A stretch of 64,000 bases of DNA from Candidatus Pacearchaeota archaeon (GCA_041659445.1 JBAZYG010000001.1:155068-219067), one strand, 5' to 3'; counted from the stretch's first letter, positions 8,742-50,863 are shown. The notes: generated from the letters alone by a model not told the origin. Numbers and translations: made by a program.

Positions 8742-11381
8742 CTATTTATCCAACCATTCTAAATCACTATAATCATAAATATAATCTGGTTTTTTTTCTT
8801 TATTTATTTCTGAAACATAATAATCATGCATTCTTTTTAAAAATTCTTGTTTGTCTTCTATTCTCATCAAATCCATATGTCCTTGAAGAATAAGATTAAG
8901 AGAGAAAGGAGATGGGACTTTCACAAAATCAGTTATTATTTTTACTTTTCCTTCTTTTATCCAAGACAAAACTTTTTTTGCATTTTCAATATCCATTAAA
9001 TCTTCTAAAACTTCTCTTTTTGCTTCTTTTAAAATTGGGAAATCTGAACTTATTTTTTTTACACTAGCAATTAAAAAATGACTATTCATTTGTTGTCTTT
9101 TTACGCTTTTTTTATTTCCTTTGTAATTTCTTAAAATCATTAATGAACGAGTTGCACAATGTCTAAACCTTCTTGTTAAAATGTCTGTTTTTTCAATTGC
9201 TTTTCTTAGAATCTCTTCAATATTTTTTTCTGAAAGATTTGAAATTGCTTTGTCAAAATTTAATTTTTCAGAAGACAGGTAAAAACCCCTGTCGCTTATT
9301 CCTATTTCAACATCTCTTTCTCCTTCTTTTCCAATTAAAAAAGCTAAAGCTCTTGAAAGTGCGTCATTTACTCTTCTTCCATATAAACTATTTATTAGAA
9401 GATATTTTTTTTCATCTCTTTCATCAGTATATTCTTCTACTGTGATTGTTTCTGAATCAGAAATTTCAAAGAATTTGTATTGCTGATAAATATAATTGTA
9501 AATTTCATTTGCAATTTTTTCATTCACATAAGTATATTCTTTAATAAATTCAATTATTTTTTCTTTTGGTTTTTTTGCTTTTAATCTTTCTTTAATTTTT
9601 TTTCTGAATTCATTAATTTCTAATGCAGATTCAAAACTCAATGGAAGCACTTCAGAAAACCATGAAGGAATTGTTGGTGCTCTTGATAATTCTGGTTTTA
9701 CATAAAGGTTCATTCCTTTTGTATACATATACTGATATTTATTTCCACCAAGAACAAAAATATCTCCTTTTTTCATTCGATTTAAAAAAGATTCATCAAT
9801 TTTTCCAACTTTTTCTTCTGAATTAATTTTCACATCCACAAAAGATTCTTCAGGAATTGTTCCAATATTTGTCAAATAAATTACACGAGCCATTTTTCCT
9901 TTTTTTCCTATTGTTCCTTCTTTTTCATCATACCATATTTTGCTGTAAATTTTATTTTTTTCTAAATCATATTGTCCTGAGAGATAACTTATAACAGATA
10001 AAAAATCAATTCTTGATAATTCAGAGTAACAATAACTTTTTTTTATCAAGGAAAACATTTCATCTTTTTTCCAAATCTTATTTATAGCCATTCCAAATAT
10101 TTGTTGAGATAATACATCAAGACAATTTTTAGGAAAATGGATGTTGTCTATTTTTCCTTCTATCATTTCTTTTTGAATTATACTGCATTCAACTAAATCA
10201 TCTCTGTCTAAAACTATAAATTTTCCTTTTGCTGTTTCATGAAGTTTATGTCCTGCACGTCCAACTCTTTGAAGAGCTCTTGAACTTGCTTTTGGACTTC
10301 CAAGCATTATTACTAAATCTATATATCCAATATCAATTCCTAATTCTAAAGAAGTGGAGCAAACAACAACTTTTAATTTTCCGTCTCTTAAATCATCTTC
10401 TATTTTTTTTCTGTGGTCTTTGCTTAAAGATGAATGATGTGCTGCAATATTTTCATCAGTGTATGCCGTCGGAAATTTGTCTTTTAAATAATTCACAACT
10501 CTTTCAGTTGCAGAACGAGTATTTGTGAAAACCAATGTTGTTTTATGTTTTTCAATTAATTCATGAACAAGTTTGTATAAATCATTGTAAGGGTTTTCGT
10601 GTTCTATTAAATTTTCTACTGGCGTTAATACTTCAATATCTAATTTTTTATTTGAAGGAATTTTTGCAATTTCAATTATTCTTTTTTCGTCCTCGCCAAT
10701 TAAAAATCTTGCAATTTCTTCTAAAGGTTCTATTGTTGCACTTAAACCTATTTTTACAGGAAAAGTTTTGCTTAATTCATTTAATCTTTCTAAACTTAAA
10801 CTTAAGTAAACTCCTCTTTTGTTTCCAAGTGAATGTATTTCATCGACGATGCAAAATTCGACATTTTCAAAAGCTTCTATAAATTTTTTAGTTGTCAAAA
10901 CAATTGCTAAAGATTCTGGAGTTGTAATTAAAATGTGCGGAGGGTTTTTTGCCATTTTTGCTTTTTCAGAAATTGAAGTGTCACCAGTCCTTAACCCAAT
11001 TCGAATTTTTTGGAGTTTTATTTCTTTAGTTTTTGCAAGTTCAGTTATTTCTTCTAAAGGTTCAATTAAATTTTTGTGAATATCATTACTCAATGCTTTT
11101 AATGGAGAAGTATAAACTGCATAAACTTTGTTTTCAAGTTGGTTTTTTTCTGCTAAATTTATTAAATGATTTAAAATAGACAAAAATGCAGTTAAGGTTT
11201 TACCTCCTCCTGTTGGCGCTGAAATTAATGTGCTTTTTCTTTCATAAATATTCAAAACTCCGTATTTTTGTGAATCTGAAAAGTCTTTAAATTTAGAGAA
11301 AAACCATTCACGAATAAGAGGGTTTAATTTTTCTTTTATTTCTTCTGTTTTTCTTGGTTTTGCTATTAATACTTCTGTCAT
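8742..11381 (-). CDS. lhr: Lhr-type superfamily II ATP-dependent helicase (Lhr-core like).
   Basis: 879 aa. Walker A APTGGGKT. DEIH box (CIVDEIHSL). SAT motif (SATIEP). Long C-terminal extension typical of Lhr rather than Hel308. Confidence 0.8.
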   Translation of the reverse strand: MTEVLIAKPRKTEEIKEKLNPLIREWFFSKFKDFSDSQKYGVLNIYERKSTLISAPTGGGKTLTAFLSILNHLINLAEKNQLENKVYAVYTSPLKALSNDIHKNLIEPLEEITELAKTKEIKLQKIRIGLRTGDTSISEKAKMAKNPPHILITTPESLAIVLTTKKFIEAFENVEFCIVDEIHSLGNKRGVYLSLSLERLNELSKTFPVKIGLSATIEPLEEIARFLIGEDEKRIIEIAKIPSNKKLDIEVLTPVENLIEHENPYNDLYKLVHELIEKHKTTLVFTNTRSATERVVNYLKDKFPTAYTDENIAAHHSSLSKDHRKKIEDDLRDGKLKVVVCSTSLELGIDIGYIDLVIMLGSPKASSRALQRVGRAGHKLHETAKGKFIVLDRDDLVECSIIQKEMIEGKIDNIHFPKNCLDVLSQQIFGMAINKIWKKDEMFSLIKKSYCYSELSRIDFLSVISYLSGQYDLEKNKIYSKIWYDEKEGTIGKKGKMARVIYLTNIGTIPEESFVDVKINSEEKVGKIDESFLNRMKKGDIFVLGGNKYQYMYTKGMNLYVKPELSRAPTIPSWFSEVLPLSFESALEINEFRKKIKERLKAKKPKEKIIEFIKEYTYVNEKIANEIYNYIYQQYKFFEISDSETITVEEYTDERDEKKYLLINSLYGRRVNDALSRALAFLIGKEGERDVEIGISDRGFYLSSEKLNFDKAISNLSEKNIEEILRKAIEKTDILTRRFRHCATRSLMILRNYKGNKKSVKRQQMNSHFLIASVKKISSDFPILKEAKREVLEDLMDIENAKKVLSWIKEGKVKIITDFVKVPSPFSLNLILQGHMDLMRIEDKQEFLKRMHDYYVSEINKEKKPDYIYDYSDLEWLDK

Positions 11382-37988: not shown

Positions 37989-40900
37989 ATGGTGAAAAAG
38001 TTTAAAATCTATTTGTTAATTTGTATAATATTATTTGTGATTTTAATTGATTTTTTATCTGCAGAATCAATTTCTGATACTCTTCATTTAAACATTCAAA
38101 CAACTTATTCAAATGGGACAATTCAACCTGGAACTTTTACTTTTGTTTTTAATATAACTACAGATTCTGCATGTTCAAATGTTGTTTATTCAAATTCTTC
38201 AACCTTGACTACTGATTCAAGAGGAATTATTTCTTATTATCTTGAAAATGTAAATTTGAATTTTACAAATCAGTATTACTTATGTTATTACAGAGACGGT
38301 GTTTTGATTAATAATTCTAAAATTGCAAGAAGCCCATATTCTTTTACAACAAAAAACGCAACAGTTAGTGGATTAATTAAAGATGCTAATTTAAACATGA
38401 CTGGATATAATATTAGTGCAGATTATTTTTCAGGGACAGGAGCAAATTTAACAGAAAATTTAACTATTGGGAAAAAAATCATTTTTGGATTTGGTGAAAC
38501 AATTGATAATTTAGTCAGTGGTTGGATTAAAATAACTGGAAGTGCTAATGTTACAGGAAGTTTAATTGTCAACGGAAATATTAATTCTACTACTGGAGAT
38601 ATTTGTATAACAGGAGGAAATTGTTTGAGTACAGTTGCTTCAGGAACAGAACCTTTATGGACAGCAAACTTTACTGCTTATAACACGTCGTGGAGTTCAA
38701 CTTATAATTCAAGTTATGTTCCTTATACTGGCTCAACTGCGAATGTTAGTTTAGGAGCTTATAATTTCAGCGTCGGAGGAACTGATTTTTTTGTTAATTC
38801 AAATAAAGATTCAATTTCATCTGGAGGTTCAACAGCTTCGGGATTATATTCTGTTGCTTTAGGTGAATCAAATATTGCTTCAGGAGATGATTCAGTATCT
38901 TTAGGTTATAGTAATACTGCTTCAGATACTGGTGCTGTTGCCATTGGTTATCAATCAACTTCTTCTGCACCTTATTCAACAGCCTTAGGATATATGACAA
39001 CTGCTTCTGGACAAAAATCAACTGCTTTTGGTGCATCAACAATAGCGTCATCAGATTATGCAATTGCAATGGGTTATTCAACTATTGCATCAGGAACATA
39101 TTCTACAGCAATTGGTAGAGGAATAAATGTTTCTGGTTCAAATTCTGTTGGTATTGGATTAAATGATCAATCAGGAACTGTTCTTAGTCAAGCAAATACA
39201 ATGTCAATTATGGGTGGAACAGTTGGAATAAATACAACAGCTCCTAAAAATACTTTAAATGTCATCGGAACAGGAAATATAACTGGAAATGTAACTTCAC
39301 AAACTGATTTTTGTATTGAAGGTGGAAATTGTTTAAGTAGTGCTGTTGGAAGTTTAGGAAATATTTCAGGAGGTGGAGTAGAAAATTATATTCCTAAATG
39401 GATTGGATCAGCAAGTTTAGGGAATTCACTTGTTTATGATAATGGAACTTATGTTGGTATTGGAACAGCAACTCCAACATATCTTCTCGACGTGAATGGA
39501 AGTGGAAATATTGTGAATGATTTTAGAGTTGGAAATGATTTATTTGTTACAGGTTGGGTAAATTCAAGTGAAGATGTTTGCATTGTTGGAGGAAATTGTT
39601 TGAGTACAGTTGCTTCAGGAACAGAACCATTATGGACTGCTAACTTTACTGCTTATAATTCTTCTTGGTCATTTACTTATAATGCAACTTATGACTCTTA
39701 TAATTCAACTGGATTAATTAAAGATTGGAATTCTTCGGGTTTAATAATAAATTGGAGTACTGAATCTGGAATTGAATCTGATCCTTTATGGACTGCTAAC
39801 TTTACTGCTTATAACTCGTCGTGGTCTTCAACTTATAATTCAAGTTATAATACTGCTTATAATTATACAATAAATGGGACATTTATGAGGAAAGATGGAG
39901 ACAATGGTACTGGAGTTTATAATTTTGGAGGAGCTTGGAACGACGGAGGATTAACAATTTCTAATGGAAATTTGTATGCTCAAACTGTTTATGTTTATAA
40001 TATAACTTCTTTGCAAGTTTCAAATTTAAACATTAATGGTTCTTTAATTCCGCAAATTGGTTTTGATAATACTTTTGATGTTGGAAGTTCTTCATTAAGA
40101 TGGAGAGATTTATACGTCGGTAGAAATATTTTTTCAAATGGAAGTATTAATGTTGATTCAGGAGGAGATATTTGTATTGTTGGGGGAAATTGTTTGTCAA
40201 CATCTGGAACAGGTTCTGGAACAATTACAGGAGCTGGAACAGCGACGTATGTTCCCTTATGGAACGGAACTTCTTCGTTGAATAACTCAGTGATTTATCA
40301 AAATGGAAGTAAAATTGGAATTAATACCACTATTCCGACAGCGACATTAGATGTTAATGGAAATATTCATGCTTCAGATATTTTTGCAACAGATGTTATT
40401 TCTGGAAGCACTGTTGGTTTTGTTTCAGTTGGTTTAGGTGGTTCTATTGGTGCACATAAAACTAATTATGATGCTAAAATTACCTTTCCTGAAACAGATG
40501 ATATTTCTATTTATACAGGACTTTCTGGAGAATTATTAAGAATTTCTGGGGATGATGGTGCTGTTGGAATTGGCGAATCAATTCCAGTGTATAAATTAGA
40601 GATTAAGGGAGTTCCTATGCCCTTGGAAACACCGTCGGGTAATGGTTATTTTGGAATAACTAATATTTCAGATGGAGATATTTTAGAAATTGATTATTCT
40701 GGGAATGTTGGTATAAATACTTCAACTCCACAAAATAAATTAAATGTCGTCGGAGATGGAAATTTTACAGGAAATTTATATTCTAATGGAGCACAAGTTT
40801 TAACATCTTATACTGAAACAGAACCATTATGGACAGCAAACTTTACTGCTTATAACACGTCGTGGAGTTCAACTTACAATTCAACATATGCAAATTGGAA

Positions 40901-42527
40901 TAAAACTTATGCTGATACTTTATATTCATCAATCTCAGAACCTTTATGGACAGCAAACTTTACTGCTTATAACACGTCGTGGAGTTCAACTTATAATGCA
41001 AGTTATGATGCAAAATTAAGTGGAGTAGGAACTTCAGGTTATATTGCTGCGTGGAATGGAACTTCTTCGTTGAATAATTCAATTATTTATCAAAATGGAA
41101 CTACCTTAAATATTTCTGGAAATATCTTTGTTCAAGGCGGTTCTGGAGATGTGAATAGTAATGGTGCTGTTAATTCAGCTGATTCATTATGGGTTAAACA
41201 ATATTTAGCAGGAGCAGTTAATTTAACTGCAAAGCAATATGCAGAAGCAGATGTAAATGGAGATGGAAGAGTTGATTATTCAGATGTAGATTTAATTGAG
41301 CAAAAACTTACTGTTGAAGGATTGCCTTTAAATGAAGTTCAAAGAGAAGGAAAAAGAGCTGTTGATTCAGCATATTTTATTGATTATGACAAAGATTTTG
41401 GGATAGGAAATTATTTTTCTGATGCTGGAGATTATAATCTTACAAGTAAACTTTATGTTAATGGAACAGGAAATATCACACAAGATTTTTATGTTGGAAA
41501 TGATTTAATTGTTACAGGTTGGGTAAATTCAAGTGAAGATTTTTGTATTGTTGGAGGAAATTGTTTAAGTAATAGTGCAGATGTTTCAGAACCTTTATGG
41601 ACTGCAAACTTTACTGCTTATAACACGTCGTGGAGTTCAACTTATAATTCAAGTTATGTTCCTTATACTGGCTCAACTGCAAATGTTACTTTAGGAGATT
41701 ATAATTTTTCAGTTGGGACTTCTGATTTTTTTGTTAATGCGGATTTAAGTTCAATTTCGTCTGGGGCAAGCTCAACAGCTTCGGGATTATATTCTGTTGC
41801 TTTAGGATATGTATCAACAGCTTTAGGGCCTTCTTCAGTAGCTGTTGGGAATCATGCATTCTCTTCAGGTGATTCTTCAATAGCATTAGGGCATTATACA
41901 AATGCTTCAGGTGATTCTTCAATAGCATTAGGTGATTTAACAAATGCTTCAGGAGCTTCTTCAACAGCGACTGGTTTTGCAACAACAGCTTCGGGATTTT
42001 TATCAACAGCAATGGGTAGAGAAATTATTGCAGGAGGAGATTATAGTTTTGCTATTGCATTGAATGATCAAAATAATTTGAATGTTTCTCAAGCAAATAC
42101 AATGGCAATTATGGGGGGAAATGTTGGTATTGGAACAGCGACTCCTAATTCTATTTTAACAACTAAAGGAAATAATGTTTCATTTTTATCTGTTGGTGGA
42201 GAAAAAAGATTTTATTTTTTATCAAACGCAGATGGTAATGAAGCTGTTTTTACAATGTATGATTTTTCAGAAACTGCAAGAATTTATTTGAATACTTATT
42301 CAGATAGTTACCTTAATGTTCCAACTGGAAAATTTGGTATTAATACTTCAGCTCCTAAAAATACATTAAATGTTGTCGGAGATGGAAATTTTACTACAAA
42401 TCTTTTTGTTGGAAGTAATATAACAACAGAAAAATTAGTTTTTGAAACAAGTGCTTCTCATTACATCGACGATAATTCAACTTGTGTTAAAATTTACGGA
42501 AGTACAAGTATTTTAGAAATATGTTAA
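37989..42527 (+). CDS. Giant secreted adhesin-like surface protein (1512 aa) with Hep_Hag/YadA-head-like repeats, tail-fibre-like 'VGIGTxxPxxxLxVxG' motifs, six 'EPLWTANFTAYNTSWSSTYNSSY' repeats and an internal dockerin module.
   Basis: Signal MVKKFKIYLLICIILFVILIDFLSA. Runs of (S/T)xA(L/I)G heptads (e.g. SVALGESNIASGDDSVSLGYSNTASDTGAVAIGYQS...). Dockerin duplicate GDVNSNGAVNSAD...ADVNGDGRVDYSD at about 41140-41310. NxS/T sequons throughout. Confidence 0.7.
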   Translation: MVKKFKIYLLICIILFVILIDFLSAESISDTLHLNIQTTYSNGTIQPGTFTFVFNITTDSACSNVVYSNSSTLTTDSRGIISYYLENVNLNFTNQYYLCYYRDGVLINNSKIARSPYSFTTKNATVSGLIKDANLNMTGYNISADYFSGTGANLTENLTIGKKIIFGFGETIDNLVSGWIKITGSANVTGSLIVNGNINSTTGDICITGGNCLSTVASGTEPLWTANFTAYNTSWSSTYNSSYVPYTGSTANVSLGAYNFSVGGTDFFVNSNKDSISSGGSTASGLYSVALGESNIASGDDSVSLGYSNTASDTGAVAIGYQSTSSAPYSTALGYMTTASGQKSTAFGASTIASSDYAIAMGYSTIASGTYSTAIGRGINVSGSNSVGIGLNDQSGTVLSQANTMSIMGGTVGINTTAPKNTLNVIGTGNITGNVTSQTDFCIEGGNCLSSAVGSLGNISGGGVENYIPKWIGSASLGNSLVYDNGTYVGIGTATPTYLLDVNGSGNIVNDFRVGNDLFVTGWVNSSEDVCIVGGNCLSTVASGTEPLWTANFTAYNSSWSFTYNATYDSYNSTGLIKDWNSSGLIINWSTESGIESDPLWTANFTAYNSSWSSTYNSSYNTAYNYTINGTFMRKDGDNGTGVYNFGGAWNDGGLTISNGNLYAQTVYVYNITSLQVSNLNINGSLIPQIGFDNTFDVGSSSLRWRDLYVGRNIFSNGSINVDSGGDICIVGGNCLSTSGTGSGTITGAGTATYVPLWNGTSSLNNSVIYQNGSKIGINTTIPTATLDVNGNIHASDIFATDVISGSTVGFVSVGLGGSIGAHKTNYDAKITFPETDDISIYTGLSGELLRISGDDGAVGIGESIPVYKLEIKGVPMPLETPSGNGYFGITNISDGDILEIDYSGNVGINTSTPQNKLNVVGDGNFTGNLYSNGAQVLTSYTETEPLWTANFTAYNTSWSSTYNSTYANWNKTYADTLYSSISEPLWTANFTAYNTSWSSTYNASYDAKLSGVGTSGYIAAWNGTSSLNNSIIYQNGTTLNISGNIFVQGGSGDVNSNGAVNSADSLWVKQYLAGAVNLTAKQYAEADVNGDGRVDYSDVDLIEQKLTVEGLPLNEVQREGKRAVDSAYFIDYDKDFGIGNYFSDAGDYNLTSKLYVNGTGNITQDFYVGNDLIVTGWVNSSEDFCIVGGNCLSNSADVSEPLWTANFTAYNTSWSSTYNSSYVPYTGSTANVTLGDYNFSVGTSDFFVNADLSSISSGASSTASGLYSVALGYVSTALGPSSVAVGNHAFSSGDSSIALGHYTNASGDSSIALGDLTNASGASSTATGFATTASGFLSTAMGREIIAGGDYSFAIALNDQNNLNVSQANTMAIMGGNVGIGTATPNSILTTKGNNVSFLSVGGEKRFYFLSNADGNEAVFTMYDFSETARIYLNTYSDSYLNVPTGKFGINTSAPKNTLNVVGDGNFTTNLFVGSNITTEKLVFETSASHYIDDNSTCVKIYGSTSILEIC
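38590..41720 (+). repeat. Family of near-identical intragenic DNA repeats (>=6 copies of the ~70-nt unit gaacc(t/a)ttatggac(a/t)gc(a/t)aactttactgcttataac(a/t)cgtcgtgg...). The outermost copies extend to ~130 nt of near-identity.
   Basis: Copies start near 38649, 39624, 39781, 40821, 40938 and 41589. Blocks 38641-38780 and 41581-41720 are almost identical. A second repeat, ggaggaaattgtttgagtacagttgcttcaggaacagaacc, occurs at about 38610 and about 39590. Confidence 0.8.
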
Positions 42528-42528
42528 A

Positions 42529-45500
42529 ATGGTTAATATTAAATCAAAAAAAAAGTTTTTTTTATTTTTGTTAGTCGTAACTTTTTTTATAATTCTTTTT
42601 GAAATTAGCTCGACTTCTGCTTGGCTTACTGGATATGATTACAGAAAACAAATTAATCTTACTGGAGGAACTAATGCAGGAAATGATTATCAAATAAAAT
42701 TAACAATAGGAAATACATCAGGAGGAGATTTTAATTTAGGTGGAAATGCAACAAATTTTCCAAATGATATAAGATTTACAGATGACGACGGAGAAACACT
42801 CTTGCCCTATTGGATTGAAAATACAACAAGTCCAGCAATTTTTTGGGTTAAAGTAAATGATTCTCTTAATTCAAATCAAATTATTTATATTTATTATGGA
42901 AACTCAACTGTTTCAAGTGCAACTAACGGAACTGCGACTTTTGTAATGTTTGATGATTTTGAAAGCACTGCTTTAAATGCAGTCCCAGATTCAAGCAAAT
43001 GGGTAATTACTGGAACAGACGCAAACGATAATGTAACTATTTATTTAGACCCAGCAAATGCTTCAAATCAAGTTGCAAGGACAATTGAACAAATTGATGG
43101 AGTTGGAACAAGATTATGGGTTAAAAATCTTACTTCAAGTAATTATTCTTTTGATTTTGATTATAGAACAAGTGTAAATAGAGTTTATTATTTTTACATA
43201 TATGATGGTGCTACTATTAGGACAACTATGAATCTTGATACTACATTTCATTGGTATAATGGGGCAGCTTATCAAAATTTTGCCCCAGCAACTCCATCTC
43301 ATTCTACAAATACTTGGTACGATACCGAAATATTTGTAGCAGGACCTTTTTTAAATATGACTATTAATGGAGTAAATTATAAAGGAGGAGTTCGTTCAAA
43401 TGCAACAGCATCAGTTACCTCATTAGTGATGAATCCACATACTGCAAGTTTAACTCCTCCATTATACCAATATGTTGATGATTTTAGAGTAAGAAAGTTC
43501 TCTATGAATCCTCCAGTATTAAGTGCTGTCGGAGGACAAGAATTAATTCAAGGATTGACCTGTGGAAACTTATCTGATGGAACTTATACACTCACACAAA
43601 ATGTAACAAGTAACACTACTTGTTTTATAACAAATTCTACAAATGTTATTCTTGATTGTCAAGGATTTTATATTTATGGAAATAATTCTCCATCTTCTTA
43701 TGGAGTATATTCAAATTATCCCAATACCACAGTTAAAAATTGTAATATTTTTAATTATTCTTCAGGTATAATTTTAGACAGCAATGCAAATTCAACATTA
43801 GAAAACAATACTATAAATGTTACTTTTAGCTCGGGTTCTGATGATTATGGAATTAAATTGGGTTCTGGAGTAAATTCAACAACTAAAAATAATATAATTA
43901 ATGGTTCAGGAACAAATATTTATGCTTATATGTCTTATGCAATAAATAGTTCTTCAATTAATGACACAATATTTGTCCCTTCGGGTAGGGCTTCATTTTA
44001 TTCCGTTGGAACTACAATGAATCAAGTTTTTAATTTCACAAAACTAAATGGGAAAGGAGTAATATTTTATCAAGGAAATCCTTCATTTTACAATTTAAAA
44101 ATGAATACAACTTCAGGTTCATCTATGGATTTACCAAGAAATATTACCTTAAAAAACATAACAATAAATACAAATGGAGATGCTGATGCTGTAACAATAT
44201 CAGGTGTAGGCGTTCATTTAGATTGTGAAAACGGAGTAATTAATGGTTCAAATATAGCATCAAGAAGTGGAGTATATTCTTCAGTAGGAAATGCTAAAAT
44301 TAAAAATTGCAATATAAATAATTTCAATTATTGTATTAGGATATATGGAGGTATGAATAATTCTGTTGAAAATATTATTGCAACAACATCTTATAATGGT
44401 GGGATTCCATTAAATATTTATTTTCAATCAAATTATACTCTTGTGAATAATTTCACAGGTTCAGCTCTTGTTAATGGTTTTGGTTTATCAATTCAATATT
44501 CAAGCCATAATGTAATTAATAATTCTAACTTTAATTCACTTGGAGGTAGAGGAATTTATTTTTATGGTTTAATTGGAACAGGTTTAACTTTAAATAACAC
44601 CCTAAACAATTCTTCAGGGAATTCTTCTTCAAATTATGGAATTCAACTTTCAAGTTCTAATGATAATCTTATTTATAATTCCAATGGTTCAAGTAATACC
44701 TTAACAGGAATAGATTTAACAGATTCAAGTAATAATTATTTTAATAATATAATTGGAAATTTAACAAACAATCCTACATCAACAGGTGACGGAATTACTC
44801 TCGAATCTAATTCAATAAATAATACTTTTGAAAATTCTTTTGCAATATCAAACTCTCAAAAGGTAGATTCTTACAATTCTGCTTTTAGAATTTTTTACAG
44901 CAATAATAACACTCTTAATAATGTCACAGCAAATGTTACAGGAATTAATGCAACAGGGATTTCCTTATATTCTTCAAATTATACTTTAATTAATGGTTCT
45001 GTTGGAGATAGCAACAATTTTAATAATTCGGGTTCAGGTATGCTGTTATCAAATTCAAGTCATAATGTACTTAATAATTCTGTTGCAATAAGTGGTCTAG
45101 GAAATGGGGCTTTGGGATTAAATACAAATAGTAATTATAATAATATTGTAAATTTTATTGGAATTGCAAACTCAACTGAATATGGATGCAAATCTGTTGA
45201 GCCAAAATTAACTAACAACGTTGCCATTTTCATAACAACAAGTAGTAGTTATAATAATTTAACAAATGTTTCAGGTTATAGTCGAAGTGAAGACGGAATT
45301 GCATTTTATAATAATTCTGCAAACAATATTGTAAATAATAGTTTGGGTTTAACTTATTCAAGTGTTGGGATTTTATTAACCAATTGGGCGTCTGATAATC
45401 AAGTTATTAATAGCACAGCAATCGCAATGGGTGGTTCTTGTGGAGGTGGAAAAGCATTTGGTATTGCAGATAATTCAAGTAGAAATAATATAACTAATAT

Positions 45501-46248
45501 AACAGCAATTCAATATGGTGCTGTTTCAACAGATGGGGCTTTTTTTATACGATGCATTGGGGCAACAGCCGAATGTCATCCTAATTTTAATAATACAGTA
45601 ATTAATTCTAAAATTTTAATTTACAATTCTACAAATGGTATTTCAATAACAGACAATTCAACAGGAAATGTAATAAGAAATATTTCAATAAATTCAACAT
45701 ATACTTCTTCAACATTAAGTTTGCTAAAAGTTAATTCATCAAATAATGTTTTTTGCTTAAACAATTTTACAAGTAATCTTGGAATTTATATAAATGATTC
45801 AAATGGAAGCAATACTTATAATTGCTCTTATGGTGGAAAGGTTCAAGGAAATATTTATGAAAATGTGAATAATGGAACAATAAATGTTCTCGGTTCAGAA
45901 AATTCTTCAATAGCAAATTACTATATTGGAAAATATGGTTCTGGATATCCTTATAATCAAACAAATTCTTTAAATAAAATCTATGGTGCGGTAGACTACG
46001 TTCCTTTAACAATTTATTTAACTTCTTGCGCTTATTCTGGTTCTGGAAATTGGGTAATAAATTGTTCAGAAAATTGCACCATATTAAGTAATACAGATGT
46101 AGTGGAAAATAATATTTCTATACTTGGAGTAGGAACTTTTAGAACTTCTGCAAATATAACTGGTTTTAGTAAATTAATAATTGCAGGAATAGATTCTTCA
46201 AATATTTGTAGAGTTACTTGTTTTGATGGGGGATGTTTTAAAGATTAA
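42529..46248 (+). CDS. Giant secreted protein (1239 aa): DUF2341-like N-terminal domain, LamG/concanavalin-like region, long parallel beta-helix (PbH1-like) repeat region.
   Basis: Signal/anchor KKFFLFLLVVTFFIILFEISSTSA. WLTGYDYRKQINLTGG...NFPNDIRFTDDDGETLLPYWIEN...WVKVN...IYIYYGN matches the DUF2341 pattern. Then dozens of N-x-(I/V)-x-N-x-S / SSNNxIxNN turns. Start is 1 nt after the preceding stop. Confidence 0.7.
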   Translation: MVNIKSKKKFFLFLLVVTFFIILFEISSTSAWLTGYDYRKQINLTGGTNAGNDYQIKLTIGNTSGGDFNLGGNATNFPNDIRFTDDDGETLLPYWIENTTSPAIFWVKVNDSLNSNQIIYIYYGNSTVSSATNGTATFVMFDDFESTALNAVPDSSKWVITGTDANDNVTIYLDPANASNQVARTIEQIDGVGTRLWVKNLTSSNYSFDFDYRTSVNRVYYFYIYDGATIRTTMNLDTTFHWYNGAAYQNFAPATPSHSTNTWYDTEIFVAGPFLNMTINGVNYKGGVRSNATASVTSLVMNPHTASLTPPLYQYVDDFRVRKFSMNPPVLSAVGGQELIQGLTCGNLSDGTYTLTQNVTSNTTCFITNSTNVILDCQGFYIYGNNSPSSYGVYSNYPNTTVKNCNIFNYSSGIILDSNANSTLENNTINVTFSSGSDDYGIKLGSGVNSTTKNNIINGSGTNIYAYMSYAINSSSINDTIFVPSGRASFYSVGTTMNQVFNFTKLNGKGVIFYQGNPSFYNLKMNTTSGSSMDLPRNITLKNITINTNGDADAVTISGVGVHLDCENGVINGSNIASRSGVYSSVGNAKIKNCNINNFNYCIRIYGGMNNSVENIIATTSYNGGIPLNIYFQSNYTLVNNFTGSALVNGFGLSIQYSSHNVINNSNFNSLGGRGIYFYGLIGTGLTLNNTLNNSSGNSSSNYGIQLSSSNDNLIYNSNGSSNTLTGIDLTDSSNNYFNNIIGNLTNNPTSTGDGITLESNSINNTFENSFAISNSQKVDSYNSAFRIFYSNNNTLNNVTANVTGINATGISLYSSNYTLINGSVGDSNNFNNSGSGMLLSNSSHNVLNNSVAISGLGNGALGLNTNSNYNNIVNFIGIANSTEYGCKSVEPKLTNNVAIFITTSSSYNNLTNVSGYSRSEDGIAFYNNSANNIVNNSLGLTYSSVGILLTNWASDNQVINSTAIAMGGSCGGGKAFGIADNSSRNNITNITAIQYGAVSTDGAFFIRCIGATAECHPNFNNTVINSKILIYNSTNGISITDNSTGNVIRNISINSTYTSSTLSLLKVNSSNNVFCLNNFTSNLGIYINDSNGSNTYNCSYGGKVQGNIYENVNNGTINVLGSENSSIANYYIGKYGSGYPYNQTNSLNKIYGAVDYVPLTIYLTSCAYSGSGNWVINCSENCTILSNTDVVENNISILGVGTFRTSANITGFSKLIIAGIDSSNICRVTCFDGGCFKD

Positions 46249-47443
46249 AATGAAAATTGGAAATTTATTTTTTGTTTTTTTTATTTTTCTTTTTTCAATT
46301 TTAACTTTTGTAATTGTTTCAGCAGATGTTATTTCTGTTAATTCAGGAGGAAGTGAAAATGTAATAATAACTGCAGATAAATATCTTGAAGGTTTTTTCT
46401 TTTCTTCAAGAGACATTAATAATTTACCGAGCAATCCTTTAAATGTAAAATTGGTTTCCTTGAATGGAAGAAATGAGTCAGATACTGATTTGAATTGTTC
46501 AGGATATATTACTGACGTTGAGAATTTGACTTTGACAGTATATGTAGATTGGATTAAAGATGATAATTCACAATTTATTCAAGTTTTTGAAAATCAATTA
46601 AACAATTCTGTGTTTTCAACTTTGTTAAATAATGGAAATTTAAGTTTAGGAGATGTTTGGAAATGTTCATTGAAAGTTTCTGATGGAGAATATAATAGTA
46701 GTTGGATTGACTCAAATGAATTAACTATTATTGATATAACAAATCCAAATGTAACAATTGTTCATCCAAATTCTTCTGCTAATTACACAAGTTTAGATAT
46801 TGATTTCAATATTTCGATTTCTGAAAATGAAAATATTTCTTGGTGTGGTTACAGCGTCAATGGAACAGCGAATGTAACAATGATTAGATTAAATGATTCT
46901 TATTTTTGGCATGAACCCCCAAACTTAACAGTTGGATTAAATAATGTAACTTTTTATTGTAATGATACTTCTGGAAATTGGGGAACAAATTTCACGAATT
47001 TTACAATTTTAGACGAGGCTGCAATTGCAATTCAATTGTCTCCTGCATTAAGTTTAACTGTTAATTGGACTTTGGAAAGTTTGCCTGCTAATGATTTGAA
47101 CGCAGAAGGAAATAATTTAACTGGAGATACTTTGTATTGGGTAAATTTATCTGTAACTGCAACTACTGCAGATTTATACGTGAAAGCCGACGGAGATTTG
47201 CAAACTTTAGATTTAGATATTCTTGGTTTAGGAAATGAAACTTTTTGTGCAAATTTAACAAATTCTTCTGTTCCTGATTTAAATAGATTGATTATGAATA
47301 CAAGTTATGTTTTAATTGCTGAAGATCTTCCTAGTAGTATAATTTATTTGAAATTTTATCTTGATGCTCCGTCGGGACAAGCAGCAGGAACTTATTTGAA
47401 TAATTTAGATTTCAAAGCAGTAAATCATGGAAACACTCCTTAA
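46223..47443 (+). CDS. Secreted protein (406 aa). The C-terminal half belongs to the paralog family defined by ...F(W/Y)LD.P.GQAAGTY.N...FK.V.
   Basis: Signal ...FLFSILTFVIVSA|DV. C-terminus ...YLKFYLDAPSGQAAGTYLNNLDFKAVNHGNTP. The region from ~residue 250 aligns with the full length of the two ~200-aa paralogs. Overlaps the upstream gene by 26 nt. Confidence 0.55.
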   Translation: MMGDVLKIKMKIGNLFFVFFIFLFSILTFVIVSADVISVNSGGSENVIITADKYLEGFFFSSRDINNLPSNPLNVKLVSLNGRNESDTDLNCSGYITDVENLTLTVYVDWIKDDNSQFIQVFENQLNNSVFSTLLNNGNLSLGDVWKCSLKVSDGEYNSSWIDSNELTIIDITNPNVTIVHPNSSANYTSLDIDFNISISENENISWCGYSVNGTANVTMIRLNDSYFWHEPPNLTVGLNNVTFYCNDTSGNWGTNFTNFTILDEAAIAIQLSPALSLTVNWTLESLPANDLNAEGNNLTGDTLYWVNLSVTATTADLYVKADGDLQTLDLDILGLGNETFCANLTNSSVPDLNRLIMNTSYVLIAEDLPSSIIYLKFYLDAPSGQAAGTYLNNLDFKAVNHGNTP

Positions 47444-47518
47444 TTTTTTAAAAGAAATTAATTTCACTAGAAAAAATAAATCTTTATAAAGTATATTCTC
47501 TTATTTAAATCAATTAAT

Positions 47519-48136
47519 ATGAAAAAGAAAGGTGTGATATTTTATCGTTTGATTTTGATTTTAATTCTTTTAGCAGTTATTGTTTTATTAATTGTTCAAA
47601 ATCTTCCTAAAGTTACTGGAAATTCAATTACTGGTTTTGCAACAAGTGGAAATACTACTTCAAATGTTACAATTACTTCTTATTTATCAATTGCGTTTTG
47701 TGATAATTTATCTACAGGAATTTGGTTTGGAGAAGTTGCAAGTTTACCTGTAACAAATCAAAATGGAACACATAATGCAGATGGTGCTAGTAGTGGAAGT
47801 ACTTATTGTTTGAATGTTTCTGCTGATTCAAATACAAATGTTGATTTTTGTACAAAAGCAAGTGGAAATTTGACAACAACCGGAGCAGATGTTATTGTTT
47901 TAGCAAATGAAACTTGGAATAATGCAACAACCACAGATGCAACAACTCCATCTTATGCTACTGAAAATATTTTGACAACAGATTATGTCAAATCCGGTGG
48001 TAATGTTGCTAGCGACGGTACTGGTGTCAATTATTACAGATTCTGGTTAGATATTCCAGGTGGACAAGCAGCAGGAACATATAATAATACTGTATTTTTC
48101 AAAGGAGTAAATACTGGAAATCCATGTGGTGCATAA
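47519..48136 (+). CDS. Small secreted protein, paralog family member (205 aa).
   Basis: N-terminal hydrophobic segment. ...NTNVDFCTKASGNL...ANETWNNAT...YVKSGGNV...YYRFWLDIPGGQAAGTYNNTVFFKGVNTGNPCGA. Confidence 0.55.
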   Translation: MKKKGVIFYRLILILILLAVIVLLIVQNLPKVTGNSITGFATSGNTTSNVTITSYLSIAFCDNLSTGIWFGEVASLPVTNQNGTHNADGASSGSTYCLNVSADSNTNVDFCTKASGNLTTTGADVIVLANETWNNATTTDATTPSYATENILTTDYVKSGGNVASDGTGVNYYRFWLDIPGGQAAGTYNNTVFFKGVNTGNPCGA

Positions 48137-48773
48137 AATTAAAATGAAGAAAAAAAAGGTGACATTCGTTGAGAAAATTTTGTTTTTAAGTTTAGTCTTG
48201 ACTTTGATTTTACCTTTGGCAACTGCAGGTGTTGGTGTTAAATGGAGTAAAGAATCTTCTTTAGTTTCAGAAAATTCAAAAGTTTGTATGTCTTATGATG
48301 TTTATAATCCATGGCCACAAGATACTTATGCTACAATTAGTTTATCTCCGGAATTAATGGAAATTATTGATTATATTGGTTCAGATATTGTTTTCCTTCC
48401 TAATGAGACATCAAGTACAAATGCTATTCCTGTTGAATTTTGTTTTAAAACACCAAAAGTTTATGAAAAAGATTGTTGGGTTGGAGATGTATTTTTTTGT
48501 AAGCAAGATTGTTTAGAAGAAATGAAAACTTATGAAGGTGAAGTGTTGGTAATGGAAACTTCTCCAGATCAATCATCTCAATCTGCACAAGGTTCTGCTA
48601 CTAAAATGTCTGTTTCTGCACCTTTGAGAATTAGAGTTCAATGTGAAGCACAAAATAGAAATTTCAGTGCATTGTATGTTCTTGTTGGACTTATTGCATT
48701 AATATTATTGATAATAAATTTAGTTAAAAACAAGAAAAGCAAGCAAAATAAAAAGATTAAGAAAAAGAAATAA
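48126..48773 (+). CDS. Secreted Cys-containing protein with a C-terminal TM anchor and a poly-Lys tail (215 aa).
   Basis: Signal ...LILPLATA|GV. C-terminus ...ALYVLVGLIALILLIINLVKNKKSKQNKKIKKKK. The true start may be the internal MKKKKV (48144), which contains an A8 tract. Confidence 0.5.
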   Translation: MVHKIKMKKKKVTFVEKILFLSLVLTLILPLATAGVGVKWSKESSLVSENSKVCMSYDVYNPWPQDTYATISLSPELMEIIDYIGSDIVFLPNETSSTNAIPVEFCFKTPKVYEKDCWVGDVFFCKQDCLEEMKTYEGEVLVMETSPDQSSQSAQGSATKMSVSAPLRIRVQCEAQNRNFSALYVLVGLIALILLIINLVKNKKSKQNKKIKKKK

Positions 48774-48779
48774 AATCAT

Positions 48780-49364
48780 ATGATTTCTAAAAATCAAATT
48801 TTTTATAAGACTTTTTTGATTGTGATAATTTTTTTATGCGTTATCTTAATTATTTTTCAAAATTCAAATAATTTTACTGGAAATTATTTATTAAATACTA
48901 CATCTAATGTTTCATTATTTAAATATTATTCAATTGCGTTTAGTGATAATTTGTCTTCTGGAATTGAATTTGGAACAATAGAAAATCTTCCTGCAGTTAG
49001 TGTTAATGCAACATATAATTATTTGGGTTTGAGTAATTCAACAGAATATTTTATTAATGTTTCAAATGATTCAAATACAAATATTGATTTTTGCATAAAA
49101 GCCGACGGAGATTTAGAAAGTATTGCAAGTGATATTTTGGGATTAGGAAATGAAACTTATAATAATGCAACATTCACTAATTTATCCTCGCCCTCGGATA
49201 CAGAGGTTTTGTTGACGACTTCTTATGTTAAATCAGGAAGTAATGTTTTAATTGGTGGAGTAAATTATTATCGTTTTTGGCTTGATGTTCCATCAGGACA
49301 AGCAGCTGGAACATATAACAATACTGTTAATTTCAAAGCAGTTGAAACAGATTATTCTTGTTAA
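48780..49364 (+). CDS. Small secreted protein, paralog family member (194 aa).
   Basis: ...NTNIDFCIKADGDLESIASDILGLGNETYNNAT...YVKSGSNV...YYRFWLDVPSGQAAGTYNNTVNFKAVETDYSC. Collinear with the 47519 protein over its full length. Confidence 0.55.
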   Translation: MISKNQIFYKTFLIVIIFLCVILIIFQNSNNFTGNYLLNTTSNVSLFKYYSIAFSDNLSSGIEFGTIENLPAVSVNATYNYLGLSNSTEYFINVSNDSNTNIDFCIKADGDLESIASDILGLGNETYNNATFTNLSSPSDTEVLLTTSYVKSGSNVLIGGVNYYRFWLDVPSGQAAGTYNNTVNFKAVETDYSC

Positions 49365-49402: not shown

Positions 49403-50863
49403 ATGATTAAAAAAGAGGTGTTTATTTTTATCTTTATTTTTTGTGTATCTCTTGTGTTTGCAATAACTGGTTATGTTACAGAAGGAAATTCTCCGTCATC
49501 AGTTACTATTGAAGGTTTGAGAATTGTTTATTCTACTTTTAATGGTTCTACAACTAATTTTAATTCCTTGAATACATCTGAATTAAATAATTTATCATTG
49601 ATGACTTTAGAAAAATCTAGTTATGGTAAAGTTATTTTTAATCAAAGTGTTAATTTGACTTTAACTGCAGGAGTGGATAAAATTGTTAATTTTGATTTGG
49701 ATTTGAACATTTCTAATAATTTAATTTATATTGATGATTCGGATTTACCTTATTTAAATAAAACAGTTACTATGTTTTTATATGGTCTTAGTTATACAAA
49801 TCCAAGGATAATTCATAATGGTGTTGTTTGTAGTGATTGTACTAAATTAAGTTATTCTGGAGGTAATTTAACTTTTTCAGCAACTACTTTTAGTGGAACT
49901 TATTATGCACAAGAAACTCCTGTTTCTCCTGTATGTGGAAATGGTGTTTGTGAATCTGGAGAAACTTCTACTAGCTGTTCTGCAGATTGTGGAAGTGGTG
50001 GTGGAGGCGGTGGAGGGGGAGGCGGAGGCGGTGGTGGAGTTACTCCTCCGATGACAACAGGCGTTAGTTTTTACATTGTTCCAGATTTTTTAGCAATTTC
50101 AATGTATAGAGGAGAATATTTTCAAAAAAATATTATTATTGTTAATAACGGAACCGAGGATTTAATAATTGGAGCATTTGTTTCAGGATTAGATAAATTT
50201 GTTTTTCCTCAAGAAGAAATATTTGAAGTTAAAGCTGGACAAAATTATACTTTAAGATTAAATATTTATGTTTCTAGTTCAACAAATATTGATGTTTACG
50301 TCGGTAAGGTTTTATTTCAATCAAAATCACTTGATAAAAGTATTAATTTTATTTTAGATGTTAAAGAAAAAGGGGCGTTATTTGACATTAGAACAAATGT
50401 TACAAAAAGATATGTTCCTCCAGGAAGAGATGTTCTTGCAAAAATTTTAATTATAAATAAAGGAGAATTAAGAAATTTTGATGTTTCTTTAGAATATAAA
50501 ATTTTAGATTTTGAAAATAATAGTTATATGCCCAAACAAGAAGATTTTGCAATAAATGAAACTTTTGCAAATACCTTTTCCTTGCATGTTCCTTCTGATC
50601 TTCCAATTGGACAATATTTATTCTACGCTAAAGTTAATTATGGAAATGTTAGTGCAACTAGTTATGATACATTTATTGTTGAAACAGTTTCATTTTGGTC
50701 TTGGATAATTTTAATAATAGTTATTATAATTTTGATTGCAATAATCTTTTTTATCTTGAGAAAAAGGAAAAAGAAAAAAGAAGGGAAACTTAAACCAAAA
50801 TCATTTTTTAAGAAACCTTCTTTAGTTAAAAGAAAATTAAGATATCCTAAAATAAATGAATAA
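49403..50863 (+). CDS. Surface protein: signal peptide, N-domain, CGNGVCESGE...C..DC knot-like motif, Gly14 linker, two Ig-like segments, C-terminal TM plus basic tail.
   Basis: MIKKEVFIFIFIFCVSLVFA signal. PVCGNGVCESGETSTSCSADCGSGGGGGGGGGGGGGGVTPP. C-terminus FWSWIILIIVIIILIAIIFFILRKRKKKKEGK. Confidence 0.55.
   Translation: MIKKEVFIFIFIFCVSLVFAITGYVTEGNSPSSVTIEGLRIVYSTFNGSTTNFNSLNTSELNNLSLMTLEKSSYGKVIFNQSVNLTLTAGVDKIVNFDLDLNISNNLIYIDDSDLPYLNKTVTMFLYGLSYTNPRIIHNGVVCSDCTKLSYSGGNLTFSATTFSGTYYAQETPVSPVCGNGVCESGETSTSCSADCGSGGGGGGGGGGGGGGVTPPMTTGVSFYIVPDFLAISMYRGEYFQKNIIIVNNGTEDLIIGAFVSGLDKFVFPQEEIFEVKAGQNYTLRLNIYVSSSTNIDVYVGKVLFQSKSLDKSINFILDVKEKGALFDIRTNVTKRYVPPGRDVLAKILIINKGELRNFDVSLEYKILDFENNSYMPKQEDFAINETFANTFSLHVPSDLPIGQYLFYAKVNYGNVSATSYDTFIVETVSFWSWIILIIVIIILIAIIFFILRKRKKKKEGKLKPKSFFKKPSLVKRKLRYPKINE

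Follow-up and report, generated by a model that had tools for sequence, protein, structure and literature searches.

A widespread DPANN gene cluster for three unannotated surface protein families, with a candidate donor-strand docking module

The 64,000 nucleotides from Candidatus Pacearchaeota archaeon analyzed here (GCA_041659445.1, JBAZYG010000001.1:155068-219067; the whole stretch is referred to as the window, GC content ~27%) carry a string of surface protein genes, five of which are the subject of this report. Their products are designated A, B, M, C and D (Table 1). A, B and C carry a common domain, X, and are the sole X proteins of the window according to a local search with a hidden Markov model (HMM). 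M is encoded between B and C and is unrelated to X in sequence, yet it is a constant partner gene. An earlier note on this DNA had described the products of the open reading frames (ORFs) at 46223, 47519 and 48780, i.e. A, B and C, as an unrecognised paralogous family of three small secreted proteins with a common C-terminal domain of about 100 aa. All three ORFs are indeed present on the plus strand at these positions and their paralogy is real, the BLASTP scores lying far beyond chance. B and C (205 and 194 aa) are full-length paralogs of about 200 aa, as proposed, with 53% identity over their full length (E 2e-69), while residues 247-400 of A match C (43% identity, E 9e-27) and residues 284-404 match B (35% identity, E 9e-15). 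BLASTP and HMM likewise agree with the placement of the domain at the C-terminal end of A. Its length had been underestimated and is rather ~150 aa (profile positions ~48-194), and smallness is a property of B and C only, A being a member of a class of large proteins (~397 aa).

The start of A is most likely ATG 46250, 2 nt past the stop codon of the upstream gene. The protein consists of a signal peptide with a canonical VSA↓D site (arrows denote cleavage sites), the motif ADVISVNSGG...EGFFF, two immunoglobulin (Ig)-like regions and the X domain, which stops 2-3 residues short of the stop codon. B and C have an N-terminal segment in common that is absent from A, namely a transmembrane/signal helix followed by ITG.A....TSNV(T/S)(I/L), and furthermore a pair of cysteines, one in the sequence DFC and the other C-terminal. 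The X domain of A has DLY where others have DFC and lacks both conserved cysteines as well as the ITG...SNVTI motif. That all three proteins are secreted, as had been claimed, is supported indirectly by the hydrophobic helix at the N-terminus of each and by the density of N-glycosylation sequons, which amounts to 4.4-6.4 per 100 aa in A, B and C versus 0 in two cytoplasmic proteins of the window.

Table 1. Genes and sequence features of the X locus in the window.
Feature	Position	Strand	Remarks
Protein A, large X class	46223..47443	+	406 aa from TTG; probably ~397 aa from ATG 46250
X domain of A	46994..47434	+	local hmmsearch: profile 42-193 = ORF residues 268-414
Protein B, small X class	47519..48136	+	205 aa; transmembrane/signal helix, N-terminal motif, X domain, Cys111-Cys203 pair
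N-terminal extension motif of B (ITGFATSGNTTSNVTI)	47627..47674	+	candidate processing site and donor strand
Protein M	48126..48773	+	215 aa from GTG; 209 aa from ATG 48144 in NCBI record
Protein C, small X class	48780..49364	+	194 aa; transmembrane/signal helix 4-29, motif, beta-sandwich 52-189, Cys105-Cys194 pair
N-terminal extension motif of C (FTGNYLLNTTSNVSL)	48873..48917	+	conserved; predicted local distance difference test (pLDDT) 56-76, no strand assigned in monomer model
Protein D	49403..50863	+	486 aa
N-terminal extension motif of D (ITGYVTEGNSPSSVTI)	49463..49510	+	pilin N-terminal HMM match, E 3e-4
Two giant surface proteins directly upstream of A	37989..46248	+	2-nt gaps between genes

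Searches of Pfam, NCBIfam and the sequences in the PDB with A, B, C, M and D, 37 homologs of X and 41 homologs of M returned noise only. In Pfam, neither A, B and C (cut-off E≤1) nor the 37 X homologs (E≤0.1) gave a significant match, X proteins found no significant match in NCBIfam, and PDB sequences were matched neither by single-sequence nor by profile queries. The designation of X as unrecognised was thus justified; X, M and D are three unannotated protein families and not demonstrable members of any named family. A search of other genomes for homologs and their neighbours, which the earlier note had suggested, showed the family to be large beyond this genome and its gene order to be conserved. 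At E≤1e-3, a profile of 37 members matches 748 cluster representatives (clustering at 50% identity), of which 485 remain at E≤1e-10. When one genome per species was scanned, 73 X loci were found, almost all of them in DPANN archaea, with the labels Pacearchaeota, Woesearchaeota, Nanoarchaeota and Aenigmatarchaeota (metagenome-assembled genomes). Two loci (L050 and L072) are labelled 'uncultured Methanosarcinales', one weak match stems from Methanobacterium, and a hybrid of D and A (P0370) bears the label 'Patescibacteria group bacterium'. The Methanosarcinales and Patescibacteria labels are probably binning or labelling errors and do not reflect true occurrence outside the DPANN archaea.

X proteins come in two architectures. 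The small form (~190-205 aa) comprises an N-terminal hydrophobic helix, a segment of the type iTG.aTe.sTtSNVtI, the X domain and two cysteines, the first residing in DFC (97% of 94 small forms) and the second occupying the last position or one close to it (95%). Adhesin-like proteins of 390 to more than 3000 aa make up the large form. Between their X domain and the stop codon lie 1-4 residues (45 of 45 cases), the N-terminal motif and both cysteines are lacking, and the N-terminal parts of large relatives contain Laminin_G_3, beta-helix/NosD, PKD or Glug domains as judged by Pfam. A and most large X proteins possess a canonical cleavable signal peptide (VSA↓D) and therefore need a non-covalent anchor after export. 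P0255 (1201 aa) is an exception in that a complete small X protein including the terminal cysteine is followed by about 1000 more residues. P0182 (698 aa), in which X is followed by D, was considered as a self-complemented fusion but rejected, because the signal peptide of D is still present inside the protein, which identifies it as a read-through or gene-calling artefact.

Two further N-terminal elements were noticed among X proteins. Directly after the canonical VSA↓ site, 10 of 19 complete large X proteins exhibit a second mature N-terminal motif, (S)AD[IV][ILF]S[IV]NSGG...LIINP...[IL]EGFF[FS]. It is present in A (window positions 46250-46400), in L001, L003, L009-L012, L019, L022, L036 and L055, and in P0369-P0372, P0378 and P0340, and also occurs in hybrids with a D-like C-terminal half (Ig domains plus transmembrane helix); it could be another strand-type docking element. 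In a subclass of small X proteins (~280-300 aa; P0199, P0204, P0208, P0211, P0220, P0223, P0230, P0234, P0235, P0249, P0254 and P0263) the hydrophobic segment is preceded by a conserved N-terminal coiled-coil domain of ~100 aa (…Y..G.IS...Y…W…Y), and the same kind of N-terminal domain is present in at least one giant large X protein, that of L005 (2665-6732). Proteins with this domain should either lie in the membrane with the N-terminus inside (N-in) or have a leader of unusual length.

Homologs of M and D go together with X nearly everywhere. X, M and D are jointly present in 58 of 78 loci and X and M in 12, while many of the remaining loci are truncated by contig ends. The overall order is large X (XL), one to three small X (Xs), M and D, with XL-Xs-M-D in 17 loci, XL-Xs-Xs-M-D in 11, Xs-M-D in 7 and XL-Xs-M-Xs-D, the type found in the window, in 6. 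Since the flanking housekeeping genes vary from locus to locus, the linkage of X, M and D is not mere shared synteny. In other genomes the constant upstream neighbour is a large protein that itself ends in an X domain.

M consists of a signal peptide, a single Ig-like beta-sandwich with six conserved cysteines, a C-terminal transmembrane helix and a lysine-rich tail. Its best structural match is a WxL-interacting protein (WxLIP), followed by pilus chaperones of the PapD type. In D, the signal peptide (VFA↓ITG) is followed by the motif of the small X proteins, an N-terminal domain, a Cys-rich segment with poly-Gly and two Ig-like domains, and the protein ends with a transmembrane helix (~431-452) and a basic tail. 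The Cys-rich segment (CGNGVCESGETSTSCSADCG) occupies residues ~178-215 and continues into a run of 14 glycines; some homologs carry the annotation DUF4215. The N-terminal domain of D (profile ~30-183) is also found internally in some large X proteins (L043, L044, L063 and L066) and is therefore a mobile module of these surface proteins. A gene for a ParA/MinD-type ATPase (CbiA/ParA matches in Pfam) adjoins the D gene in two distant loci (the P0062 contig and L006, 4814-5620) and was seen neither in the window nor in most other loci.

D is connected with the small X proteins by the N-terminal motif, the consensus of which is ITG.A.E..TSNVTI in small X. D starts with a canonical signal peptide, …SLVFA↓ITGYVTEGNSPSSVTI…, and the small-X motif recurs at the N-terminus of the mature protein. 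A 25-column HMM derived exclusively from small-X N-termini has matches at E<1e-3 in 24 of 61 D homologs, in each case just behind the signal peptide (residues ~20-50), whereas none of 82 M homologs is matched at E<1 and no ORF of the window except B, C and D at E<0.5. When the profiles of X and D were compared by hhalign, a probability of 92.6% resulted (E 4.4e-7), as opposed to 14.6% for X versus M as a control. The similarity is confined to the N-terminal 39 columns, and homology of X and D over whole domains was rejected for this reason. In the small X proteins the motif is conserved at 2.82 bits per column versus 2.55 for the domain core, and its residues V43 and I45 are hydrophobic in 100% of the sequences and alternate with polar residues. 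D variants of unrelated architecture, including a type of ~640 aa, retain the motif right after the signal peptide. In short D forms it leads straight into the Cys-rich segment or into a Pro/Gly linker (L007, L070 and a 156-aa protein of L005), and the L005 protein (9209-9679) contains nothing but signal peptide, motif, poly-Gly tract and transmembrane helix. As the motif is kept whatever comes after it, it can be regarded as a free-standing N-terminal module.

The AlphaFold2 model of C, which is based on the family alignment (pLDDT 89.8), shows a helix (residues 4-29), a coil (30-50, pLDDT 56-76) and a beta-sandwich (52-189). Despite its conservation the motif is unstructured in this monomer, as expected for a strand that is used in trans. 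Comparison of the model with the PDB by Foldseek gave weak scores (best E 4.5e-3, TM-scores 0.3-0.5), and ~35 of the top 50 matches are chaperone-usher pilins (CsuA/B, CupE, CfaB, FimA, SafA, PapA and FimI, E 4.5e-3 to 0.1). A second structural list contains CsuA/B (7.7), FimA (7.1), CupE (6.4) and the Pyrobaculum bundling pilin (6.4) and, at lower scores, the Sulfolobus thread subunit (6.2), TasA (5.7) and the cannula subunit CanX (5.7). The earlier note had advised checking for a cohesin-like beta-sandwich; a beta-sandwich is in fact predicted, but cohesins are absent from both lists. By this model, X is a pilin-like beta-sandwich of ~150 aa with the greatest, albeit weak, similarity to chaperone-usher pilins.

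Chaperone-usher pili, especially the archaic Csu/CupE (SCPU) type, therefore are the closest known systems in fold as they provide the best Foldseek matches. The likeness extends to the components: the tip adhesin ends in a pilin domain and has no donor strand, subunits carry an N-terminal extension, M takes the place of a PapD-like partner with an Ig fold, and D is a donor-only analogue of a terminator or anchor (cf. PapH). By analogy, the split into tip adhesin, subunits, terminator/anchor and chaperone would correspond to the division of labour in donor-strand systems. As in chaperone-usher pilins, an alternating-hydrophobic N-terminal extension, here a putative donor, is present in small X proteins and D and is absent from the 45 large X proteins. 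On the other hand, there is no outer membrane and no usher-like gene in any locus, M is membrane-anchored and has a single domain, X lacks a Pfam match to Fimbrial or SCPU and shows weak similarity scores, and the putative donor strand is short and can be glycosylated.

Chances appear about evenly divided as to whether X provides the docking module for a surface assembly of DPANN archaea that is built by beta-strand (donor-strand) complementation and displays adhesins. In such an assembly the large X proteins (here A, elsewhere polypeptides of up to >3000 aa), with only an acceptor domain at their extreme C-terminus, would form the distal adhesive end or tip. The small X proteins (B and C) would contribute an acceptor domain plus a free N-terminal extension (ITG.A.E..TSNVTI), which would slot into the acceptor of the subunit before it, so that small X proteins in series could form an adaptor, a short stalk or a fibre. 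D, bearing only the N-terminal extension and a C-terminal transmembrane helix, would close off the last subunit and fasten the whole assembly to the membrane as a donor-only anchor or terminator. M, as a membrane-anchored PapD/WxLIP-like Ig domain, may serve either as a chaperone to which subunits are bound until strands are exchanged or as a further anchor. All components would be exported via Sec and be heavily N-glycosylated.

Several points weigh against such an assembly. Strand insertion itself is something that we infer, as are the polarity, the cleavage before ITG and the role of M. The fold matches of the X model are weak. In the motif, hydrophobic alternation spans few residues, and no more than two positions are strictly hydrophobic. 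At ~20 aa, the hydrophobic segment of small X proteins is long, and in one well-populated subclass it is preceded by ~100 aa of cytoplasmic coiled-coil; it is for these reasons that the segment may be an uncleaved anchor in at least some small X proteins, which would leave these without a free N-terminus. A signal peptidase site is compatible with the residues ahead of ITG in only a subset of the small X proteins, and the common motif could be a sorting or processing signal instead of a donor strand. Furthermore, M has one Ig domain and PapD-type chaperones have two. Among the three functions offered in the earlier note, that of pilus or fibre subunits or tips is still the best fit, Foldseek having returned mainly donor-strand pilins, but its polymerisation aspect finds no support: there is no sign of polymerisation, and 40 of 75 loci encode a single small X protein.

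In organisation, the closest known systems are the WxL/Csc clusters of Firmicutes (Lactobacillales, Bacillales), which encode small and large WxL proteins, WxLIP and an LPXTG protein, and with which the X clusters have in common that the domain is C-terminal in large proteins (45 of 45), that small proteins consist of the domain alone and that both are adjacent in most loci. A plan with an N-terminal binding part and a C-terminal docking domain is common to large WxL proteins and the tip adhesins of chaperone-usher pili (PMC9772566), and a strand of WxLIP completes the WxL sandwich according to AlphaFold predictions (PMC9772566, PMC10599100). X domains might accordingly form a static platform on the envelope that is stabilised by a strand of M as the WxLIP analogue, with adhesin domains facing outward and with neither a donor chain nor a fibre. 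We regard this as unlikely, although it is the strongest of the competing explanations. It leaves unexplained the free-standing motif that is common to D and small X and absent from large X and M, and for which no WxL counterpart has been described. In the WxL domain, Trp-x-Leu occurs as a conserved pair of motifs that lie on adjacent strands and are separated by 68-106 residues (PMC9772566), whereas the X consensus has FWLD just once (W-L-D, not W-x-L) and lacks a second motif; FWLD was therefore rejected as a WxL motif, order and spacing being wrong and the second motif absent. PF13731 is matched neither by A, B and C at E≤1 nor by the 37 family members at E≤0.1, M has no match to PF06030 or PF11797 in Pfam, and it contains one Ig-like domain where WxLIP (DUF916, DUF3324 and transmembrane helix) has two in tandem. 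WxL proteins are reported to be exclusively bacterial and to bind peptidoglycan, their proposed ligand, whereas X occurs in archaea; DPANN archaea are not known to possess peptidoglycan. In addition, small and large X domains are clearly homologous, whereas small and large WxL domains reportedly differ in topology (PMC9772566).

Less probable again is the explanation that the motif is only an export, processing or glycosylation signal, i.e. one for a particular signal peptidase or an oligosaccharyltransferase sequon, and that X is a lectin-like or S-layer-binding module acting on glycans of the own or the host surface. It is true that the motif starts where cleavage is probable (VFA↓ITG in D, VNA↓ITG and VSA↓ITG in some small X proteins) and includes a near-invariant sequon N-V-T/S, TasA and TapA likewise have a common dedicated signal type (PMC9245690), and N-terminal beta-sandwiches of GH123 score on par with pilins against the X model. 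However, the motif is absent from A, M and the two giants, which the operon encodes and which are exported as well, the sequon is missing from many D motifs (SSVTI, SEVSI), conservation runs 10-15 residues past the cleavage site with a beta-strand pattern, and no dedicated peptidase gene is conserved in the cluster.

Two other explanations were considered and rejected as highly improbable. Cohesin-like receptors for the dockerin of an upstream giant, proposed in the earlier note with a view to the 1512-aa protein with Dockerin_1 (E 6.5e-13) in the same gene string, are not borne out, as A, B and C have no Pfam Cohesin match, the structural lists hold no cohesin, and dockerin adjacency is not a conserved feature, with no dockerin detected by Pfam in the upstream large proteins of three loci or in seven large relatives scanned. 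Type IV pilin-like subunits, packed into a filament via the N-terminal hydrophobic helix, would be in keeping with the high pLDDT of helix 4-29 and with the fact that type IV pili are common archaeal filaments, but the alignment reveals no class III signal (neither a conserved [KR]-G/A ahead of the hydrophobic stretch nor a conserved charge early in it), the globular part is an all-beta sandwich like that of chaperone-usher pilins, pilus ATPase, platform and prepilin peptidase genes are missing from the cluster loci, and the large forms have the X domain without any such helix.

Donor-strand complementation as such exists in archaea, as threads, bundling pili, cannulae and Tat-dependent bundling pili of haloarchaea illustrate (PMC9715654 and PMC9245690, among others). 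X differs from the Sulfolobus thread subunit (Saci_0406) and other archaeal donor-strand filaments in that there is no sequence similarity and the gene neighbourhood is another one. No chaperone-like or anchor protein has been identified for threads, whereas the X system includes a class fused to adhesins and is restricted to DPANN archaea. TasA/TapA of Bacillus and AbpA/AbpB of Pyrobaculum are set apart by the lack of a PF12389 match in X and by a fold match no better than that to other sandwiches; moreover, these systems have neither a large adhesin bearing a C-terminal subunit domain nor an M-like partner. In the literature we found no description of the X cluster or of donor-strand, chaperone-usher or Laminin-G surface systems in DPANN archaea, and no paper for the 'TLP' structure 9ikk.

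Attachment to other cells is presumed to be the way of life of most DPANN archaea. Host attachment of Pacearchaeota and Woesearchaeota is poorly explained and their giant surface proteins are unannotated. The X cluster offers concrete handles here: a compact and widespread gene set (large X, small X, M and D; 73 species-level genomes), a prediction of who binds whom, and short peptides (ITG...SNVTI) that are testable in vitro. More tentatively than the docking function of X, and with the odds somewhat against it, we propose that DPANN archaea (Pacearchaeota, Woesearchaeota, Aenigmatarchaeota and relatives) may own a chaperone-assisted donor-strand-exchange apparatus, in which giant adhesins would be strung via small subunits onto a strand-donating membrane anchor with the help of a membrane-tethered PapD/WxLIP-like assembly chaperone. 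It would serve as a host-attachment organelle of episymbionts and would be an archaeal counterpart, convergent or anciently related, of chaperone-usher pili and WxL clusters. If this is true, donor-strand assembly would be extended to a third archaeal supergroup, M would be the first archaeal candidate for a pilus-type chaperone, Gram-positive WxL systems would be linked to a general principle of non-covalent adhesin anchoring, and three new protein-family definitions (X, M and D) would be justified.

The two giants encoded upstream of A are devoid of X domains in the local HMM search of the window and are possible cargo or partners of the X system. The second of them (1239 aa, 42529-46248) contains DUF2341 (E 4.6e-23), a right-handed beta-helix and 78 N-glycosylation sequons, and resembles the N-terminal parts of large X proteins from other genomes but without the X domain. 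For the type I dockerin of the first (1512 aa, 37989-42527) no cohesin partner was identified in the window. According to Pfam, this protein also contains YadA-head repeats (7 stretches, E 3e-31), and a segment of the sequence EPLWTANFTAYN(T/S)SWSSTYN is repeated many times in it.

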